Positions 34,042 through 44,893 of a stretch of 64,000 nucleotides of DNA are shown in pieces (within the stretch, counting starts at the first letter, position 1; every line of letters starts with the position of its first letter). Source of the DNA: an uncultured Gammaproteobacteria bacterium (GTDB taxonomy: Bacteria; Patescibacteriota; Patescibacteriia; Magasanikbacterales; GWA2-37-8); the NCBI GenBank assembly GCA_964619625.1, contig CAZUFD010000003.1, positions 30,282-94,281 on the forward strand. Direction: 5' to 3'. The notes below the pieces were generated by a model, which ran no database searches, was not told the origin of the DNA, and saw only the letters and a list, made by a program, of their open reading frames with translations. The position numbers and the translations under genes are program-made.

Positions 34042-34392
34042 ATGACCGACTACCAGAACCCTGATCCCGAACTTTTTGGTCTGGAGATCGCAGTCCATTT
34101 GGGCTGGCTCGCCGGTACCGAAGCCCCTCCACTAGAAGACGAGGGGGCAGAGATCACGATCAGCGAGTTTTCCGACGCTGATCTGTTCAACTTGGAGGTC
34201 GAACACGCAGTCGACACTGCCGTTGTCGTGCCAGAGCCCGCTGGGCTGAAGGCGGCAACTGCGGAACCGACCAGCGTGGATGATGGTTGGGAGATGGAAA
34301 ACACGGGTGACAGCCAGGAGAATACCCAGGTTGATCGCCCGCGTCACATGATCATTACGGCAGAAGGTCCCCGTCTGGTCCACCACGAGTAG
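34042..34392 (+). CDS. GC-rich highly acidic protein (116 aa, hypothetical)
   Basis: AAAGGAG SD; Asp/Glu/Pro-rich; about 60% GC. Confidence 0.6.
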   Translation: MTDYQNPDPELFGLEIAVHLGWLAGTEAPPLEDEGAEITISEFSDADLFNLEVEHAVDTAVVVPEPAGLKAATAEPTSVDDGWEMENTGDSQENTQVDRPRHMIITAEGPRLVHHE

Positions 34393-35164: not shown

Positions 35165-35205
35165 TCGCCTCGCCCGAAAATTCGGAGCGAGGCAATGTAT
35201 TTTTA
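35165..35205 (+). terminator. intrinsic terminator hairpin (GCCTCGCCCGAA..TTCGGAGCGAGGC) + T-rich tail
   Basis: Long GC stem after stop of 34883 gene. Confidence 0.5.
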
Positions 35206-35251
35206 TAGGAAAAATGGATTACGTTTAATTTTTAAATATTGCTAGCACCCC

Positions 35252-35280
35252 TTGACAAAAGGGGTGTTTTGGTGTATAAT
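35252..35280 (+). promoter_or_regulatory. perfect consensus sigma70 promoter TTGACA-17-TATAAT
   Basis: Exact consensus hexamers with 17-nt spacer; -35 embedded in palindrome CACCCCTTGACAAAAGGGGTG. Confidence 0.7.
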
Positions 35281-35409
35281 GTCGGGTTGCTCTTTTAATA
35301 GACAGTCTTATTTGCCCCGGGGCAAGAATGCGTCAAATTAGCGCTTTCTCGCCCCTCGGCAACCAAGATTTCGCCGAGACAACCATTTTCCGTGAGAGGA
35401 TCGAAACAA

Positions 35410-35820
35410 ATGAAGAACTTCCGCACCCAGTTCACCTCCATCGCCAGCAACCTGATCATCCTGATCATCGCGCTCGCCTTCGTCCTCACGGGCGGGACGA
35501 CCACGGTCAACTCGGCCTACGCCGACGGCTCCGCGATCACCGTCCGCAAGAACGGCAAGAGTTTCCCGCTCACGCAGAAGCACCGCAACGCGATCAGCGA
35601 GATCGAGCACATCATGCGCCGGTCGGGCGACAACCAGAAGCAGCCGACGAAGTTCTTGTACTCCTGCAACCAGGGGAACGAGAAGATCCGGCAGATCGTC
35701 GCCACCTTCCCCGCGGATGAGCAGTTCATCATGTCGGACGAGTGGGACGGCGAGTGCTTCTTCTACATCCCGCCGACCCGGAAGGTCAACAAGACGCCGG
35801 TGATGGTCGCCAAGAAGTAG
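35410..35820 (+). CDS. secreted small protein with signal peptide (136 aa), extreme GC3 codon usage
   Basis: GAGAGGA SD; signal peptide ...LIIALAFVLTGGTTTVNSAYA; about 68% GC with GC3-saturated codons unlike host. Confidence 0.65.
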   Translation: MKNFRTQFTSIASNLIILIIALAFVLTGGTTTVNSAYADGSAITVRKNGKSFPLTQKHRNAISEIEHIMRRSGDNQKQPTKFLYSCNQGNEKIRQIVATFPADEQFIMSDEWDGECFFYIPPTRKVNKTPVMVAKK

Positions 35821-35873
35821 CAACACCCTGGTCGTGTTCGCGCCCCAAGCGCGGCCACGGCCTACGGCCCAAC

Positions 35874-35910
35874 GAACCCCGCACGCAAGTGTCGGGGTTC
35901 AGTATTTTTA
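35874..35910 (+). terminator. intrinsic terminator GAACCCCG...CGGGGTTC + T-run
   Basis: 8-bp GC stem followed by AGTATTTTTA. Confidence 0.65.
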
Positions 35911-36762
35911 AAGAGAAATATTAAATAACTTTTTAGCGTTTTCGGTCGTCGCAGCCTCGGCTTCGGCAAAAGATATTTGTTTTACTTCGGCAATTTTTTT
36001 AATTGTTTCTCGCACCATCGGCGGTTCGCATCTTTGGCCCCTATACGGAATCGGCGCCAAGTATGGCGCATCGGTTTCCACGACAATTTTTTCTAAAGGA
36101 CAATTTTTTACCACTTCAAGCAAATCAAATTGAAGTTGCGGAGAATTTTTCTTTGGCGGAAATGTTATAACACCGGTAAAACCAATATGCAGCCCCAATT
36201 CCAAATACTGCTGGGCAAAATGCCAGTTGCTGGTATAACAATGAACCGTGCCGCGAATTATTTGCTGCCCGTACTGGGCCATAAGCTGCTTTAACAGTTC
36301 TATCATCTCGGCATGCGCTTCGCGTACATGAAGAACCAAAGCCACGTTTAATTCTTGCGCTAATTTATATTGCAAAGCAAACATCTGTTTTTGTTTTTCC
36401 AACACCTCTTCCCTGGTTTTGTTTTCGGGCAATCTGTACAAATCCAAACCGCACTCCCCTACGGCAATCACTTTTTTACTTTGCCCCAAATTTTTATAAT
36501 ACTCATAATCAAACTCTTCTTCGCGCGACAAAAATTTACTTTCCTCTTCGTCAATATGAGTGGAAAACAAATGTATGGGATGAAGTCCGATGCTCGCATA
36601 CGTAAACGGAAACTTTTCAGCCATTTCCACTCCGGCCCGACTGGTATCTTTTTGCGTGCCAACCAAATTTAAAATCATATTCTCCTGGCCGCATTTTTTT
36701 ACGACTGCTTCGGCGTCATTTCTAAAACCATTAAACTGCACATGGCAATGGGTATCAAACAT
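35908..36762 (-). CDS. tatD: TatD-family metal-dependent DNase/hydrolase
   Basis: MFDTHCH N-terminal motif and TIM-barrel His/Asp/Glu residues. Confidence 0.8.
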   Translation of the reverse strand: MFDTHCHVQFNGFRNDAEAVVKKCGQENMILNLVGTQKDTSRAGVEMAEKFPFTYASIGLHPIHLFSTHIDEEESKFLSREEEFDYEYYKNLGQSKKVIAVGECGLDLYRLPENKTREEVLEKQKQMFALQYKLAQELNVALVLHVREAHAEMIELLKQLMAQYGQQIIRGTVHCYTSNWHFAQQYLELGLHIGFTGVITFPPKKNSPQLQFDLLEVVKNCPLEKIVVETDAPYLAPIPYRGQRCEPPMVRETIKKIAEVKQISFAEAEAATTENAKKLFNISL

Positions 36763-42337: not shown

Positions 42338-43468
42338 TTAACTTGCGGTAATGGTAAATAAATCTGCTTTGGCATTTTCAATTAAAGAGCTATCTATATT
42401 TGCTTCCAAACGCAATACATTTTCAAGTTTGGCCTTAATTTGTGGATGTTTGGCTACAAATAAACTGCAGCAATCCTCGTATGGCCGGATAGAAATATCA
42501 AACGTGCCGATAGTTCGAGCGGTCTCTATTATATCTTTTTTATTGGTTCCTATCAATGGAGATAATTGCAATAATTCCGACGATTTGGAAATGACTGACA
42601 TATTCTCTAAGGTCTGCGAAGCTACTTGCCCCAGGCTATTACCGGACACCAGAGCCAAATAGTTATACTCTTGCGCGATCTTTTCGGCAATTTTATTAAA
42701 AATTCTACGAGTAACAATCATGCGGTACTCGGCCGGGATTTTCATAATCACCTCTTTTTGAATAGCCGCAAACGGTACGATAAATAATTTTATTTCCGGC
42801 TGATAGCGAGCCAAAACATGCGCCAAATCAAATATTTTTGCGCTCACTTCTTCGGTTACGCTTGTTTGGTTTTGAAAATGCAGCAGGTGCGCCTGCGCGC
42901 CTCTCGTCATCATTTTATAAGCGGCTACGGGGCTATCCAAACCGCCGGAAAGTAAAACCAAAACCTTGCCGCAGCTGGATGTCGGCAATCCTCCGACTGC
43001 ACTGTGCGTATTGCCAAAAATATAAGCGCTGTCTTTACCAATATTGATATGAATATTTAAATCTGGATTTTTCAAGGAGACCTGCCAGTTATACTTTATT
43101 CGTACATACTCTCCTATTTGTTTTTCTATTTCCGTTGAAGGAATGGGAAATTTTTTAAACGAACGCTCAGCAGAGATGCGAAAGGTTTTAGTACTCGCGT
43201 TATTCTTTACCAGTTTATCAATGGTCTTTTTAATATCCTCCGTGGCATGGCTGGCTTTGAACGCTATGGCAAAATTAGCAAAACCGGGAATTAGAGCCAG
43301 CTGTTTGATTTGCTCAGGCAAAATATTTTCAACCCACAAACCGCTTTCTATTCTTTTTACCTTTATTTTCGGCAATAAATGTTCCAAATTATTTTTAAGA
43401 TGTCCATAAAAAACAGGCTGATTGGAGCCTTTGAGAAAAATTTCATCTATATGGATTATTGCATTCAT
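42338..43468 (-). CDS. thiI: tRNA 4-thiouridine synthase ThiI
   Basis: THUMP region plus PP-loop LLSGGLDSPVAAY. Confidence 0.85.
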   Translation of the reverse strand: MNAIIHIDEIFLKGSNQPVFYGHLKNNLEHLLPKIKVKRIESGLWVENILPEQIKQLALIPGFANFAIAFKASHATEDIKKTIDKLVKNNASTKTFRISAERSFKKFPIPSTEIEKQIGEYVRIKYNWQVSLKNPDLNIHINIGKDSAYIFGNTHSAVGGLPTSSCGKVLVLLSGGLDSPVAAYKMMTRGAQAHLLHFQNQTSVTEEVSAKIFDLAHVLARYQPEIKLFIVPFAAIQKEVIMKIPAEYRMIVTRRIFNKIAEKIAQEYNYLALVSGNSLGQVASQTLENMSVISKSSELLQLSPLIGTNKKDIIETARTIGTFDISIRPYEDCCSLFVAKHPQIKAKLENVLRLEANIDSSLIENAKADLFTITAS

Positions 43469-43589
43469 ACCACACTATGGGGATTTAAGCCTTATTCTAC
43501 AGTCTTTTCTGAAACTGTAAACCCCTCTATAAATTGACTCTTTATTCTACTAATGATAGCGTACTAATACACCCTAGAAGGAGTAAAGG

Positions 43590-43925
43590 ATGACCAGAAA
43601 CCCATCTGTGGGTGTCTTTAGAAGAATGTGGTGGTGCATTCGGTGCCGGAGAGCGTTGCCTAACGGCGGCCCATGCTCCCGCTGCAGAGGGATGCAGTGC
43701 ATTGGGTGCAAGGGGGCGCCTGACGGTCAATGCTCTCGCTGTAGAGGAAACTTCTGCATTTCTTGCTTTGAAGCGCATGCGCAAGTGAACCATGCGCCAA
43801 ACATGGTGATGACAGGGGTCAGTTGTGTGGAATGCGGAAATGAACCGGATGGCCAGTGTGCCCACTGCCCGGCAATCCTGTGCGAAGGCGAGGAATGCCG
43901 AAAAACCCACGAAGGCAGGCATTAG
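43590..43925 (+). CDS. GC-rich Cys-rich protein with three tandem CxxC-x(8-10)-CxxC zinc-ribbon units (111 aa)
   Basis: GAAGGAG SD 6 nt before ATG; repeats CIRCRRALPNGGPCSRCRG / CIGCKGAPDGQCSRCRG / CVECGNEPDGQCAHC; TTGACT at 43534. Confidence 0.6.
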   Translation: MTRNPSVGVFRRMWWCIRCRRALPNGGPCSRCRGMQCIGCKGAPDGQCSRCRGNFCISCFEAHAQVNHAPNMVMTGVSCVECGNEPDGQCAHCPAILCEGEECRKTHEGRH

Positions 43926-43974
43926 TCGTAACAGTGAAGACGGCTATGGAAGTATTTGCCCGATCGGGCAACCA

Positions 43975-44010
43975 GGACATCTGCAAGCCCAGCTCTGTCC
44001 TTGTTTTTTT
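43975..44010 (+). terminator. intrinsic terminator (GGACA...TGTCC + T9), preceded by hairpin TTGCCCGATCGGGCAA at 43956-43971
   Basis: Stem-loops followed by TTGTTTTTTT. Confidence 0.6.
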
Positions 44011-44033
44011 AAAACATAATTAAATTTTTTATT

Positions 44034-44438
44034 ATGACAAAAAATATTGCAATTATCCTGGGCGAATTTCACAAAAAAGAAGTAGTGGAAATGCTAAATG
44101 AAGCGCGCAAGGTGGCAGCCGAAAATAATTTAACTATTGCCGAAGAAATTTGGGTAAATGGTTCTTATGAAAAACCGCTGGCTTTGAAGCGAGTGCTGAT
44201 GAAAGAAAATATAGACGGAGCTATTGCGCTTGGAATAATTGAACGCGGAGAAACCAAGCACGGATTGGTAATGGGTCACACTGTGATGCAAAGTATTTTA
44301 AACTTGGAATTAGAATATATGAAGCCGGTTGGTATTGGAATTCTTGGTCCGGAAATTTTGCCGAGTCAAATTCCTTCTCGTTTGCTTCCTACCGCACAAA
44401 AAGCGGTACTGGCTGTGGCACGGATGTTAGAAAAATAA
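44034..44438 (+). CDS. ribH: 6,7-dimethyl-8-ribityllumazine synthase (short/archaeal-type)
   Basis: NIAIILGEFHKKEVVEM...GAIALGIIERGETKHGLVMGHTV pattern. Confidence 0.7.
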   Translation: MTKNIAIILGEFHKKEVVEMLNEARKVAAENNLTIAEEIWVNGSYEKPLALKRVLMKENIDGAIALGIIERGETKHGLVMGHTVMQSILNLELEYMKPVGIGILGPEILPSQIPSRLLPTAQKAVLAVARMLEK

Positions 44439-44440
44439 AT

Positions 44441-44893
44441 ATGGAATTCCAATTTTTGACACCAGATAAATTTATAGACGGCGATCTTGAACTGGTTTTG
44501 GTAAAAACAGTGCCAGCAAATGATAAAAAGGGTTACGTGCCAGCGTACCAATTTGCAATGATAAATACCTTTACCAGAGAAAAAATGGGAGATGTTACTT
44601 TGCGAATTGGTAACAACGAAAATATAAGGTATGGTGGCCATATTGGTTACGGTGTTGAAGAAGAGTTTAGAGGAAACCACTATAGCGCCCGTAGTATAAA
44701 ACTACTCCTACCTTTTGCGAAGAAGCATGGACTAAAAGAAGTAAGTATAACTTGCGACCCAGAAAATGCCGCTTCAAGAAAAACCTGCGAACTGGCTGGA
44801 GGAAATTTAGTAGATACAGTTGATTTGCCAGAACACAACGATCAATATAAACTTGGAGAAAGACAAAAATGTATTTATAAATTTGATTTATAA
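44441..44893 (+). CDS. GNAT-family N-acetyltransferase
   Basis: RIGNNENIRYGGHIGYGVEEEFRGNHYSARS ... CDPENAASRKTCELAGG acetyl-CoA-binding motifs. Confidence 0.7.
   Translation: MEFQFLTPDKFIDGDLELVLVKTVPANDKKGYVPAYQFAMINTFTREKMGDVTLRIGNNENIRYGGHIGYGVEEEFRGNHYSARSIKLLLPFAKKHGLKEVSITCDPENAASRKTCELAGGNLVDTVDLPEHNDQYKLGERQKCIYKFDL

Follow-up and report, generated by a model that had tools for sequence, protein, structure and literature searches.

The locus described here lies in a 64-kb stretch of bacterial DNA (contig CAZUFD010000003.1, termed the window below), between the divergently transcribed tRNA sulfurtransferase gene thiI and the lumazine synthase gene ribH. An open reading frame (ORF) beginning with ATG at this position (43590-43925 on the plus strand, stop codon included) encodes a protein of 111 amino acids (aa) with 16 cysteine and five histidine residues. 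Seven CxxC motifs are present, among them CIRC/CSRC, CIGC/CSRC, CISC and CVEC/CAHC, and a six-frame translation of the 64 kb verified that no other stop-to-stop segment contains at least three such motifs. The original prediction, made from the sequence alone, had recognized the 111-aa ORF and these motif pairs, all of which were recovered, together with a further CxxC; its count of 18 cysteines was too high. The predicted isoelectric point (pI) of the protein is 8.5, with 14 lysine and arginine residues versus nine aspartate and glutamate residues, and inspection of the sequence revealed no hydrophobic stretch. The gene, referred to here as the zinc-finger gene, is real and conserved; its product contains homologous repeats, the first of which carries the ligand pattern of a type 1 B-box, and it occupies a conserved slot next to thiI.

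Relatives of the protein were difficult to detect. A word-index homolog search with the single 111-aa sequence yielded no match, and exact-sequence look-ups of this product and of the neighboring ThiI returned no record. A HMMER search of 1.84 billion representatives identified just nine relatives with E-values of 1e-3 or lower (best 1.5e-10); with profile searches and a metagenome scan, the family grew to some 24 distinct members that range in length from 89 to 187 aa. No source provides an annotation or a precomputed Pfam domain for any of them. The nearest genome is a metagenome-assembled genome of a groundwater Candidatus Magasanikbacteria (L001), whose ThiI is 87% identical to that of the window. 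Its ortholog of the zinc-finger protein comprises 89 aa, is encoded at the same thiI/ribH junction and is 88% identical at the protein level. The two coding sequences are 91.9% identical and show a ratio of nonsynonymous to synonymous substitution rates (dN/dS) of 0.25; eight codon differences are synonymous and ten are nonsynonymous, and every cysteine and histidine ligand is kept. The similarity of the two genomes extends into the flanks, with 96.7% identity over the 120 nucleotides (nt) that precede the ATG and 95.8% over the 95 nt that follow the stop codon (43926-44020). In addition, all 11 other family loci that were inspected contain an equivalent purine-rich Shine-Dalgarno sequence (AAGGAGG or GGAAGGGAG) upstream of the ATG. 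The low dN/dS value, the retained ligands, the conserved flanks and the strong Shine-Dalgarno sequence in all loci indicate that the ORF is a real translated gene under purifying selection. A lack of conserved relatives, which had been named as an outcome that would speak against the original prediction, was not observed.

The conserved part of the protein is organized into two units, A and B (Table 1). Twelve core cysteines (C37, C40, C48, C51, C56, C59, C79, C82, C90, C93, C98 and C103) are invariant in an alignment of 20 sequences, which share 32-39% identity with the window protein except for the L001 ortholog at 88%. H107 is likewise invariant, H63 and H68 are nearly so, and the equivalent of H111 is an invariant ligand in the alignment of unit B. 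Unit B is the better conserved unit within the family, with C79, C82, C90, C93, A95, C98, C103 and H107 being invariant. Alignment of the unit A and unit B profiles with hhalign yielded a probability of 98.6% and an E-value of 1e-15, and because of this similarity the two units are identified, at the level of sequence profiles, as homologous repeats with eight ligands each. The N-terminal segment that precedes unit A is absent from L001 and all other family members. The DNA of this segment (43626-43691) resembles that at 43695-43748, in the first half of unit A, with a similarity score of 18, compared with -7.1 +/- 4.7 in 5000 permutations in which the Cys codons were kept fixed and none of which reached the observed score. 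Owing to this DNA similarity and its absence from other members, the segment is identified as a diverged, lineage-specific copy of part of unit A, namely its first half, that lies outside the conserved design. Its cysteines show the spacing of two CxxC knuckles (C16-x2-C19-x9-C29-x2-C32) and could form an extra Cys4 site; the unit is unique to the window and is modeled with low confidence (see below). A third full unit was found in two members (P0006 and P0007), so that the number of finger units across the family is 2, 2.5 or 3.

These results modify the earlier description of three tandem zinc-ribbon units. The conserved design consists of two eight-ligand units and the supposed first unit is the partial duplication found only in the window. 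The CxxC pairs taken as ribbons are real, but the histidine ligands H63, H68, H107 and H111 had been overlooked. The similarity between the repeats, whose significance had been left open, is significant according to the hhalign comparison, and the proposal of a metal-binding factor gains support in the form of a small zinc-finger protein built of internal repeats, with zinc as the presumed metal.

The ligand spacing of unit A points to a specific class of zinc finger. The consensus for type 1 B-boxes is C-x2-C-x(7-10)-C-x2-C-x(4-5)-C-x2-C/H-x(3-6)-H-x(2-8)-H (PMC4162623). Unit A is a strict match to this consensus and the only match in the six frames of the window, and the consensus is also found in 17 of 24 family members. 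Profile searches against the PDB placed the B-box 1 of PML first (E-value 8.3e-5 with the family profile and 6.5e-5 with the unit A profile), and matches were also obtained to the HIT finger of ZNHIT3 (4e-4 and 7.5e-4) and the B-box 1 of TRIM28 (1.5e-3 and 8e-4). Recurrent Pfam matches in the relatives were to zf-B_box (PF00643), ANCHR-like_BBOX (PF22586) and zf-B_box_Trim66 (PF25287), and these fell on unit A. The HIT zinc finger model PF04438 was touched by one of 11 scanned members with an E-value of 0.2. The cysteine-rich domain of DnaJ had been suggested as a further candidate; Pfam scans of 11 members brought up no such family at E<=10, and the 111-aa sequence contains no CxxCxGxG motif.

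AlphaFold2 was run with the family alignment on the full protein and on the two-unit core. The full protein was modeled with a predicted local distance difference test score (pLDDT) of 75, with values of 46-57 for the extra N-terminal unit. The core reached a pLDDT of 88.6 and a predicted template modeling score of 0.67, and each unit was modeled as a beta-hairpin followed by a helix. In a Foldseek search of the PDB, the tandem B-boxes of CONSTANS and the B-box 1 of PML occupied the top ranks, the latter with a probability of 0.87-0.94 and a root-mean-square deviation (rmsd) of 1.2-3.8 A over 31-42 columns. The B-box 1 of TRIM28 superposed with 2.6-2.7 A, and MYND, HIT and ZZ fingers ranked after the B-boxes. 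The models thus suggest a binuclear, RING-like treble clef that is closest to B-box 1. In line with the idea that B-box families should be considered, B-box 1 was the best match by sequence, by Pfam and by fold, at scores below the Pfam thresholds.

The genomic position of the gene is shared by its relatives. In all loci found outside the lineage of the window and L001 that extend far enough, about a dozen in number, the genes are arranged in the order IscS-exonuclease-ThiI on the minus strand, zinc-finger gene on the plus strand, and RlmN-transketolase on the minus strand. ThiI of these loci is 60-72% identical to that of the window, while the zinc-finger proteins are just 31-44% identical. 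On longer contigs, the IscS side further includes an Rrf2 regulator and two ferredoxins, one thioredoxin-like of the 2Fe-2S type and one of the 4Fe-4S type. In the window, the genes for the 2Fe-2S ferredoxin, IscS, exonuclease and ThiI follow each other as they do in the relatives. In the window and L001 only, ribH takes the position that is occupied by rlmN in all other related loci; a tblastn search of the 64-kb window did not detect an RlmN homolog at E<=1e-3. Synonymous divergence (dS) from L001 amounts to 0.22 for the zinc-finger gene and 0.27 for thiI, compared with 1.16 for ribH. This difference marks a break in history on the ribH side and suggests replacement or recombination at this side of the junction.

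The zinc-finger gene has a GC content of 56.5-56.8% in a window with 40.7%, and this excess had been taken as evidence for a compositionally foreign insertion between thiI and ribH. The GC excess itself is real and is a feature of every family member (47-57%, with flanks of about 40%). The amino acid composition combined with the codon usage of the neighboring genes predicts a GC content of 52.1%, and the remainder comes from the third codon position (GC3 0.61, compared with 0.27-0.39 in the neighbors; 13 TGC versus three TGT codons). The foreign origin did not hold up: the same thiI-adjacent slot is occupied in every related locus found, about a dozen relatives whose ThiI proteins are 60-87% identical to that of the window, the gene and thiI have equal dS values, and amino acid composition accounts for most of the GC excess. 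For these reasons the zinc-finger gene is evidently a long-standing resident and not a foreign insert. Among the called genes that flank the homologs, no mobile-element genes were seen, and no paralog of the zinc-finger gene is present in the 64-kb window. No Rfam family at the gathering threshold and no tRNA gene was found in the whole 64 kb, and the GC-rich patch therefore does not represent an RNA gene.

The gene is equipped with a recognizable ribosome binding site. The Shine-Dalgarno sequence GAAGGAG was verified 6 nt upstream of the ATG, as initially proposed. The TTGACT hexamer suggested as a -35 box is present (43534-43539 on the plus strand); a consensus scan, however, called no sigma-70-type promoter for the zinc-finger gene, and reading of the sequence 17 nt downstream of TTGACT revealed just TAGCGT, with TG preceding it. 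The same scan did call a good promoter-like site for the divergent thiI gene. Downstream of the stop codon, RNAfold predicted three hairpins, the last one located before the U-run, with an ordinary folding energy (z -1.44). The T-run after this hairpin is T7 at 44004-44010 (within TTGTTTTTTT, nine T in ten positions). The double hairpin with T9 described earlier is therefore correct with regard to a hairpin preceding a U-run and incorrect in the number of hairpins and the length of the T-run. A terminator scan made no call at the site, and the hairpins and the T-run are a probable intrinsic terminator. A 126-aa antisense ORF (43542-43922 on the minus strand, with a counterpart of 103 aa in L001) overlaps nearly the whole zinc-finger gene. 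The hidden Markov model of the family scored the plus-strand frame with an E-value of 1.2e-28, compared with 0.074 for the best antisense segment (43663-43818), and the antisense ORF is interpreted as a shadow ORF within GC-rich sequence.

Table 1. Features in and around the zinc-finger gene, in window coordinates
Feature	Coordinates	Strand	Remarks
thiI (THUMP and PP-loop tRNA sulfurtransferase), conserved divergent neighbor	42338..43468	-	upstream in family loci reaching that far
thiI/zinc-finger gene intergenic region, 121 nt	43469..43589		presumed divergent promoters
Promoter-like site for thiI, TTTACA-16-TAGAAT	43521..43494	-	consensus scan
Shine-Dalgarno sequence GAAGGAG, 6 nt 5' of ATG	43577..43583	+	sequence
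Extra N-terminal segment, 66 nt in frame, aa 13-34, C16/C19/C29/C32	43626..43691	+	window only
Unit A, aa 37-68, C-x2-C-x7-C-x2-C-x4-C-x2-C-x3-H-x4-H	43698..43793	+	B-box type 1-like
Unit B, aa 79-111, C-x2-C-x7-C-x2-C-x4-C-x4-C-x3-H-x3-H	43824..43922	+	diverged second copy
GC-rich 3' untranslated region, predicted hairpins, then TTGTTTTTTT	43926..44010	+	RNAfold
ribH (lumazine synthase), in the position of rlmN in relatives	44034..44438	+	Pfam DMRL_synthase 1e-21

Several further observations were made in the surroundings of the gene. In the window, ribH is followed by a gene for a GNAT acetyltransferase (44034-44893 for both). L001 contains a 46-aa remnant with 85% identity to transketolase (L001:4274-4411), for which the window has a full gene of 735 aa, and an additional stretch of about 150 nt, including the palindrome atatgtggctaaagccacatat, between the probable terminator of the zinc-finger gene and ribH (L001:5380-5520); both are signs of local rearrangement. 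Three loci carry same-strand ORFans in the gap between thiI and the zinc-finger gene (L006:912-2127, L014:1297-2512 and L015:1061-1867). The product of one of these is about 245-268 aa long, shows 35-38% identity among the loci and combines a hydrophobic segment at the N-terminus with a long charged C-terminal region; the other encodes a protein of about 115 aa. Lineage-specific small genes seem to accumulate in this slot. As potential partners of the zinc-finger protein, these ORFans (about 250 aa with transmembrane and coiled-coil segments, and 115 aa) were dismissed since they occur in three loci only, are absent from the window and match no known family. Proteins near some homologs with a faint match to zf-C4_ClpX are unrelated. 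Other GC-rich patches of 52-57% GC are located at 34042-34392 (plus strand) and at about 35200-36000 of the window. They contain an acidic ORF of 116 aa (34042-34392) and an ORF of 142 aa (35392-35820), none of them Cys-rich and without Rfam or tRNA match, and may be the other islands mentioned in the original prediction.

On balance, and with moderate confidence, the ORF is best explained as a gene that is expressed and has been inherited vertically within a Magasanikbacteria-like clade of Patescibacteria, or candidate phyla radiation (CPR), and that encodes a tandem B-box-1-like zinc-finger interaction module. The product would be a small soluble protein, the core of which would consist of two tandem binuclear fingers with a cross-brace treble clef of the B-box type 1 or RING-like kind. 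Each unit is expected to bind two zinc ions in cross-brace ligation, which would give four structural zinc ions in the core, and the additional CxxC...CxxC pair contributed by the duplication in the window may form a fifth, Cys4 site. The protein would not be an enzyme; it may act as a zinc-stabilized interaction or oligomerization module that binds a macromolecular partner. This role is suggested by the lack of a catalytic domain, of enzyme, defense or phage matches and of a hydrophobic stretch in the protein, and it would be in keeping with B-box and HIT fingers; no match of the protein to an enzyme family or catalytic domain was detected. A precedent is provided by the B-box 1 of PML, which dimerizes and binds UBC9 and thus serves as an interaction and oligomerization module (PMC10705990). 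The flanking RNA-modification and Fe-S enzymes ThiI, IscS and RlmN are possible partners.

A number of observations weigh against this explanation. Unit B departs from the B-box 1 consensus with x4 between ligands 5 and 6 and agrees with a relaxed pattern only, and the profile of unit B alone found no significant match in the PDB. Pfam detected no match at E<=10 in the window protein. The B-box matches of the relatives cover nearly the full models at 15.6-23.5 bits, with gathering cut-offs of 24.1-27, and formal B-box membership at curated thresholds is not reached. All Foldseek E-values are non-significant at 0.1 or higher, and HIT and MYND fingers score nearly as high as B-boxes, so that the assignment to the B-box subclass is tentative. 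A C-terminal H-x-D-x-RSDEEK tail found in most family members is absent from the window and L001, which have also lost the adjacency to RlmN. Finally, synteny in a narrow clade may reflect just shared ancestry and is weak evidence for a partner, and the neighborhood includes genes as unrelated as the exonuclease and transketolase.

The same fingers could serve in a nucleic-acid-binding regulator, which we consider unlikely. Such a protein would bind the thiI intergenic DNA and control the thiI-exo-iscS-ferredoxin operon, or it would bind tRNA or rRNA as an accessory factor of ThiI or RlmN. The divergent orientation relative to thiI over 121 nt that are 97% conserved with L001 is compatible with this role, as is the variable number of units (2, 2.5 or 3), which is reminiscent of nucleic-acid-binding finger arrays. 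ThiI and RlmN are both RNA-modifying enzymes, and the DNA-binding fingers of CTCF and GATA appear in the Foldseek list with a low probability of 0.08-0.28. The mildly basic pI of most members (6.9-8.9; 8.5 for the window protein) would fit as well, but the positive charge is slight and in some members there is no net charge. HIT and MYND fingers are known mainly as protein-binding modules, and the same is true for B-box 1, which together with them provides the best matches. In addition, no bacterial DNA-binding family was matched, and the divergent operon of several relatives already includes an Rrf2 regulator.

Other readings start from the neighboring genes and from the composition of the gene. 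An iron-binding, rubredoxin-like protein or an accessory factor of Fe-S and sulfur trafficking, for example an electron donor for RlmN or a partner of IscS and ThiI, appears improbable. The conserved neighborhood with a 4Fe-4S ferredoxin, a thioredoxin-like 2Fe-2S ferredoxin, a cysteine desulfurase, Rrf2, ThiI and RlmN invites this idea, and pairs of CxxC knuckles (CxxC...CxxC) are the ligand pattern of rubredoxin and are found here. However, two conserved histidines of each unit are placed as in B-boxes, a feature typical of structural zinc sites, and no rubredoxin, ferredoxin or Fe-S family was matched at any threshold. The gene is convergent with rlmN and hence not co-transcribed with it, it is retained in the window and L001 even though rlmN is missing from their loci, and unrelated genes share the neighborhood. 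That the gene is a foreign island of recent acquisition, or encodes the precursor of a ribosomally synthesized and post-translationally modified peptide (RiPP), is very improbable and already largely refuted. The GC content (57% compared with 41% for the window) and GC3, the small Cys-rich product and a radical-SAM gene adjoining the homologs had spoken for these possibilities. For the island, this is countered by the shared position and orientation, by the dS value, by a composition that accounts for 52% of the 57% GC and by the lack of flanking mobile-element genes. A phage or defense origin was rejected as well: the family has neither viral loci nor viral structural matches, and no significant PADLOC, PHROGs or NCBIfam match was obtained (the NCBIfam hits being noise). 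The modified-peptide precursor proposed in the original prediction is not supported either. The radical-SAM gene beside the homologs encodes RlmN (TIGR00048 with 243-273 bits, plus an RlmN_N domain), is convergent to the zinc-finger gene and has no counterpart in the 64-kb window. RlmN is the only radical-SAM neighbor in the relatives, and no maturase-like gene lies beside the ORF in the window. The invariant cysteines and histidines are located in a confidently predicted fold and not in a leader/core layout.

The B-box-like interaction module thus remains the preferred explanation, and its occurrence in a bacterium deserves attention. B-box fingers are seen as a mostly eukaryotic feature, and a survey of the TRIM family found no B-box in prokaryotes (PMC2533329); a few bacterial B-boxes with roles in membrane-protein biology were reported later (summarized in PMC4506424). 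A soluble tandem B-box-like protein in ultra-small groundwater bacteria would constitute a new bacterial branch of the B-box fold, and a family of unannotated ORFs gains a name and a structural hypothesis. With its stand-alone tandem architecture, its restriction to one CPR clade and its modified second unit, this unannotated family appears set apart from the prokaryotic B-boxes of Burroughs, Iyer and Aravind (2011, Mol Biosyst 7:2261), as far as these are summarized in PMC4506424. A bolder proposal, which we regard as a long shot, is that of an undescribed, CPR-restricted family of stand-alone double B-box proteins, with a domain familiar mainly from TRIM proteins of eukaryotes and BBX proteins of plants, that acts as a zinc-dependent adaptor or activator for its long-term neighbors ThiI, RlmN and IscS and maybe originated from an old inter-domain transfer. 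Such an adaptor would be analogous to small zinc-finger partners like Trm112 and the HIT-finger assembly factors, and as a partner of ThiI or RlmN it would represent a lineage-specific accessory factor of RNA modification in organisms with minimal genomes. The locus also calls for caution with GC-rich islands in AT-rich genomes, which can be artefacts of proteins rich in Cys, Gly, Pro, Ala and Arg and not the result of transfer.

Among known systems, the B-box 1 of TRIM proteins (PML/TRIM19 B1, 2MVW and 6IMQ; TRIM28 B1, 6O5K; PF00643) is the closest counterpart. Unit A has its C5(C/H)H2 spacing, and PML B1, the best profile match, shares 39% identity over 31 columns superposed at 1.2 A on the AlphaFold2 model. 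In contrast to the TRIM proteins, the zinc-finger protein is bacterial, stands alone without RING, coiled-coil or C-terminal domain, stays below the Pfam gathering scores, differs in unit B by a spacing of x4 where x2 would separate ligands 5 and 6, and is found with no ubiquitin or SUMO machinery in evidence. HIT fingers (ZNHIT3, 2YQQ; DDX59; PF04438) have an almost equal ligand spacing, with profile E-values of 4e-4 to 7.5e-4. They are small adaptor domains in ribonucleoprotein assembly, a role that resembles the context of the zinc-finger gene between RNA-modification genes, yet the structural match is poorer than that of B-box 1 (rmsd 6.8-9.6 A) and the profile rank is behind PML B1. The plant CONSTANS/BBX proteins (7VSQ, 7WSJ and 7VSP) likewise contain two tandem, mutually similar, B-box-1-like boxes (PMC2533329), and CONSTANS is the top Foldseek match of the whole core (TMq 0.39, probability 0.60). 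This match has an E-value of 0.12 and an rmsd of about 9 A, with a different inter-domain arrangement; CONSTANS/BBX chains were not among the sequence-profile matches and the window protein is without a CCT domain. The prokaryotic B-boxes of Burroughs et al. are, according to the summary in PMC4506424, also bacterial B-box-like binuclear treble clefs. In that summary they are linked to the folding, stability and proteolysis of membrane proteins, whereas the zinc-finger family looks soluble and stand-alone and is encoded in a fixed thiI/rlmN context.

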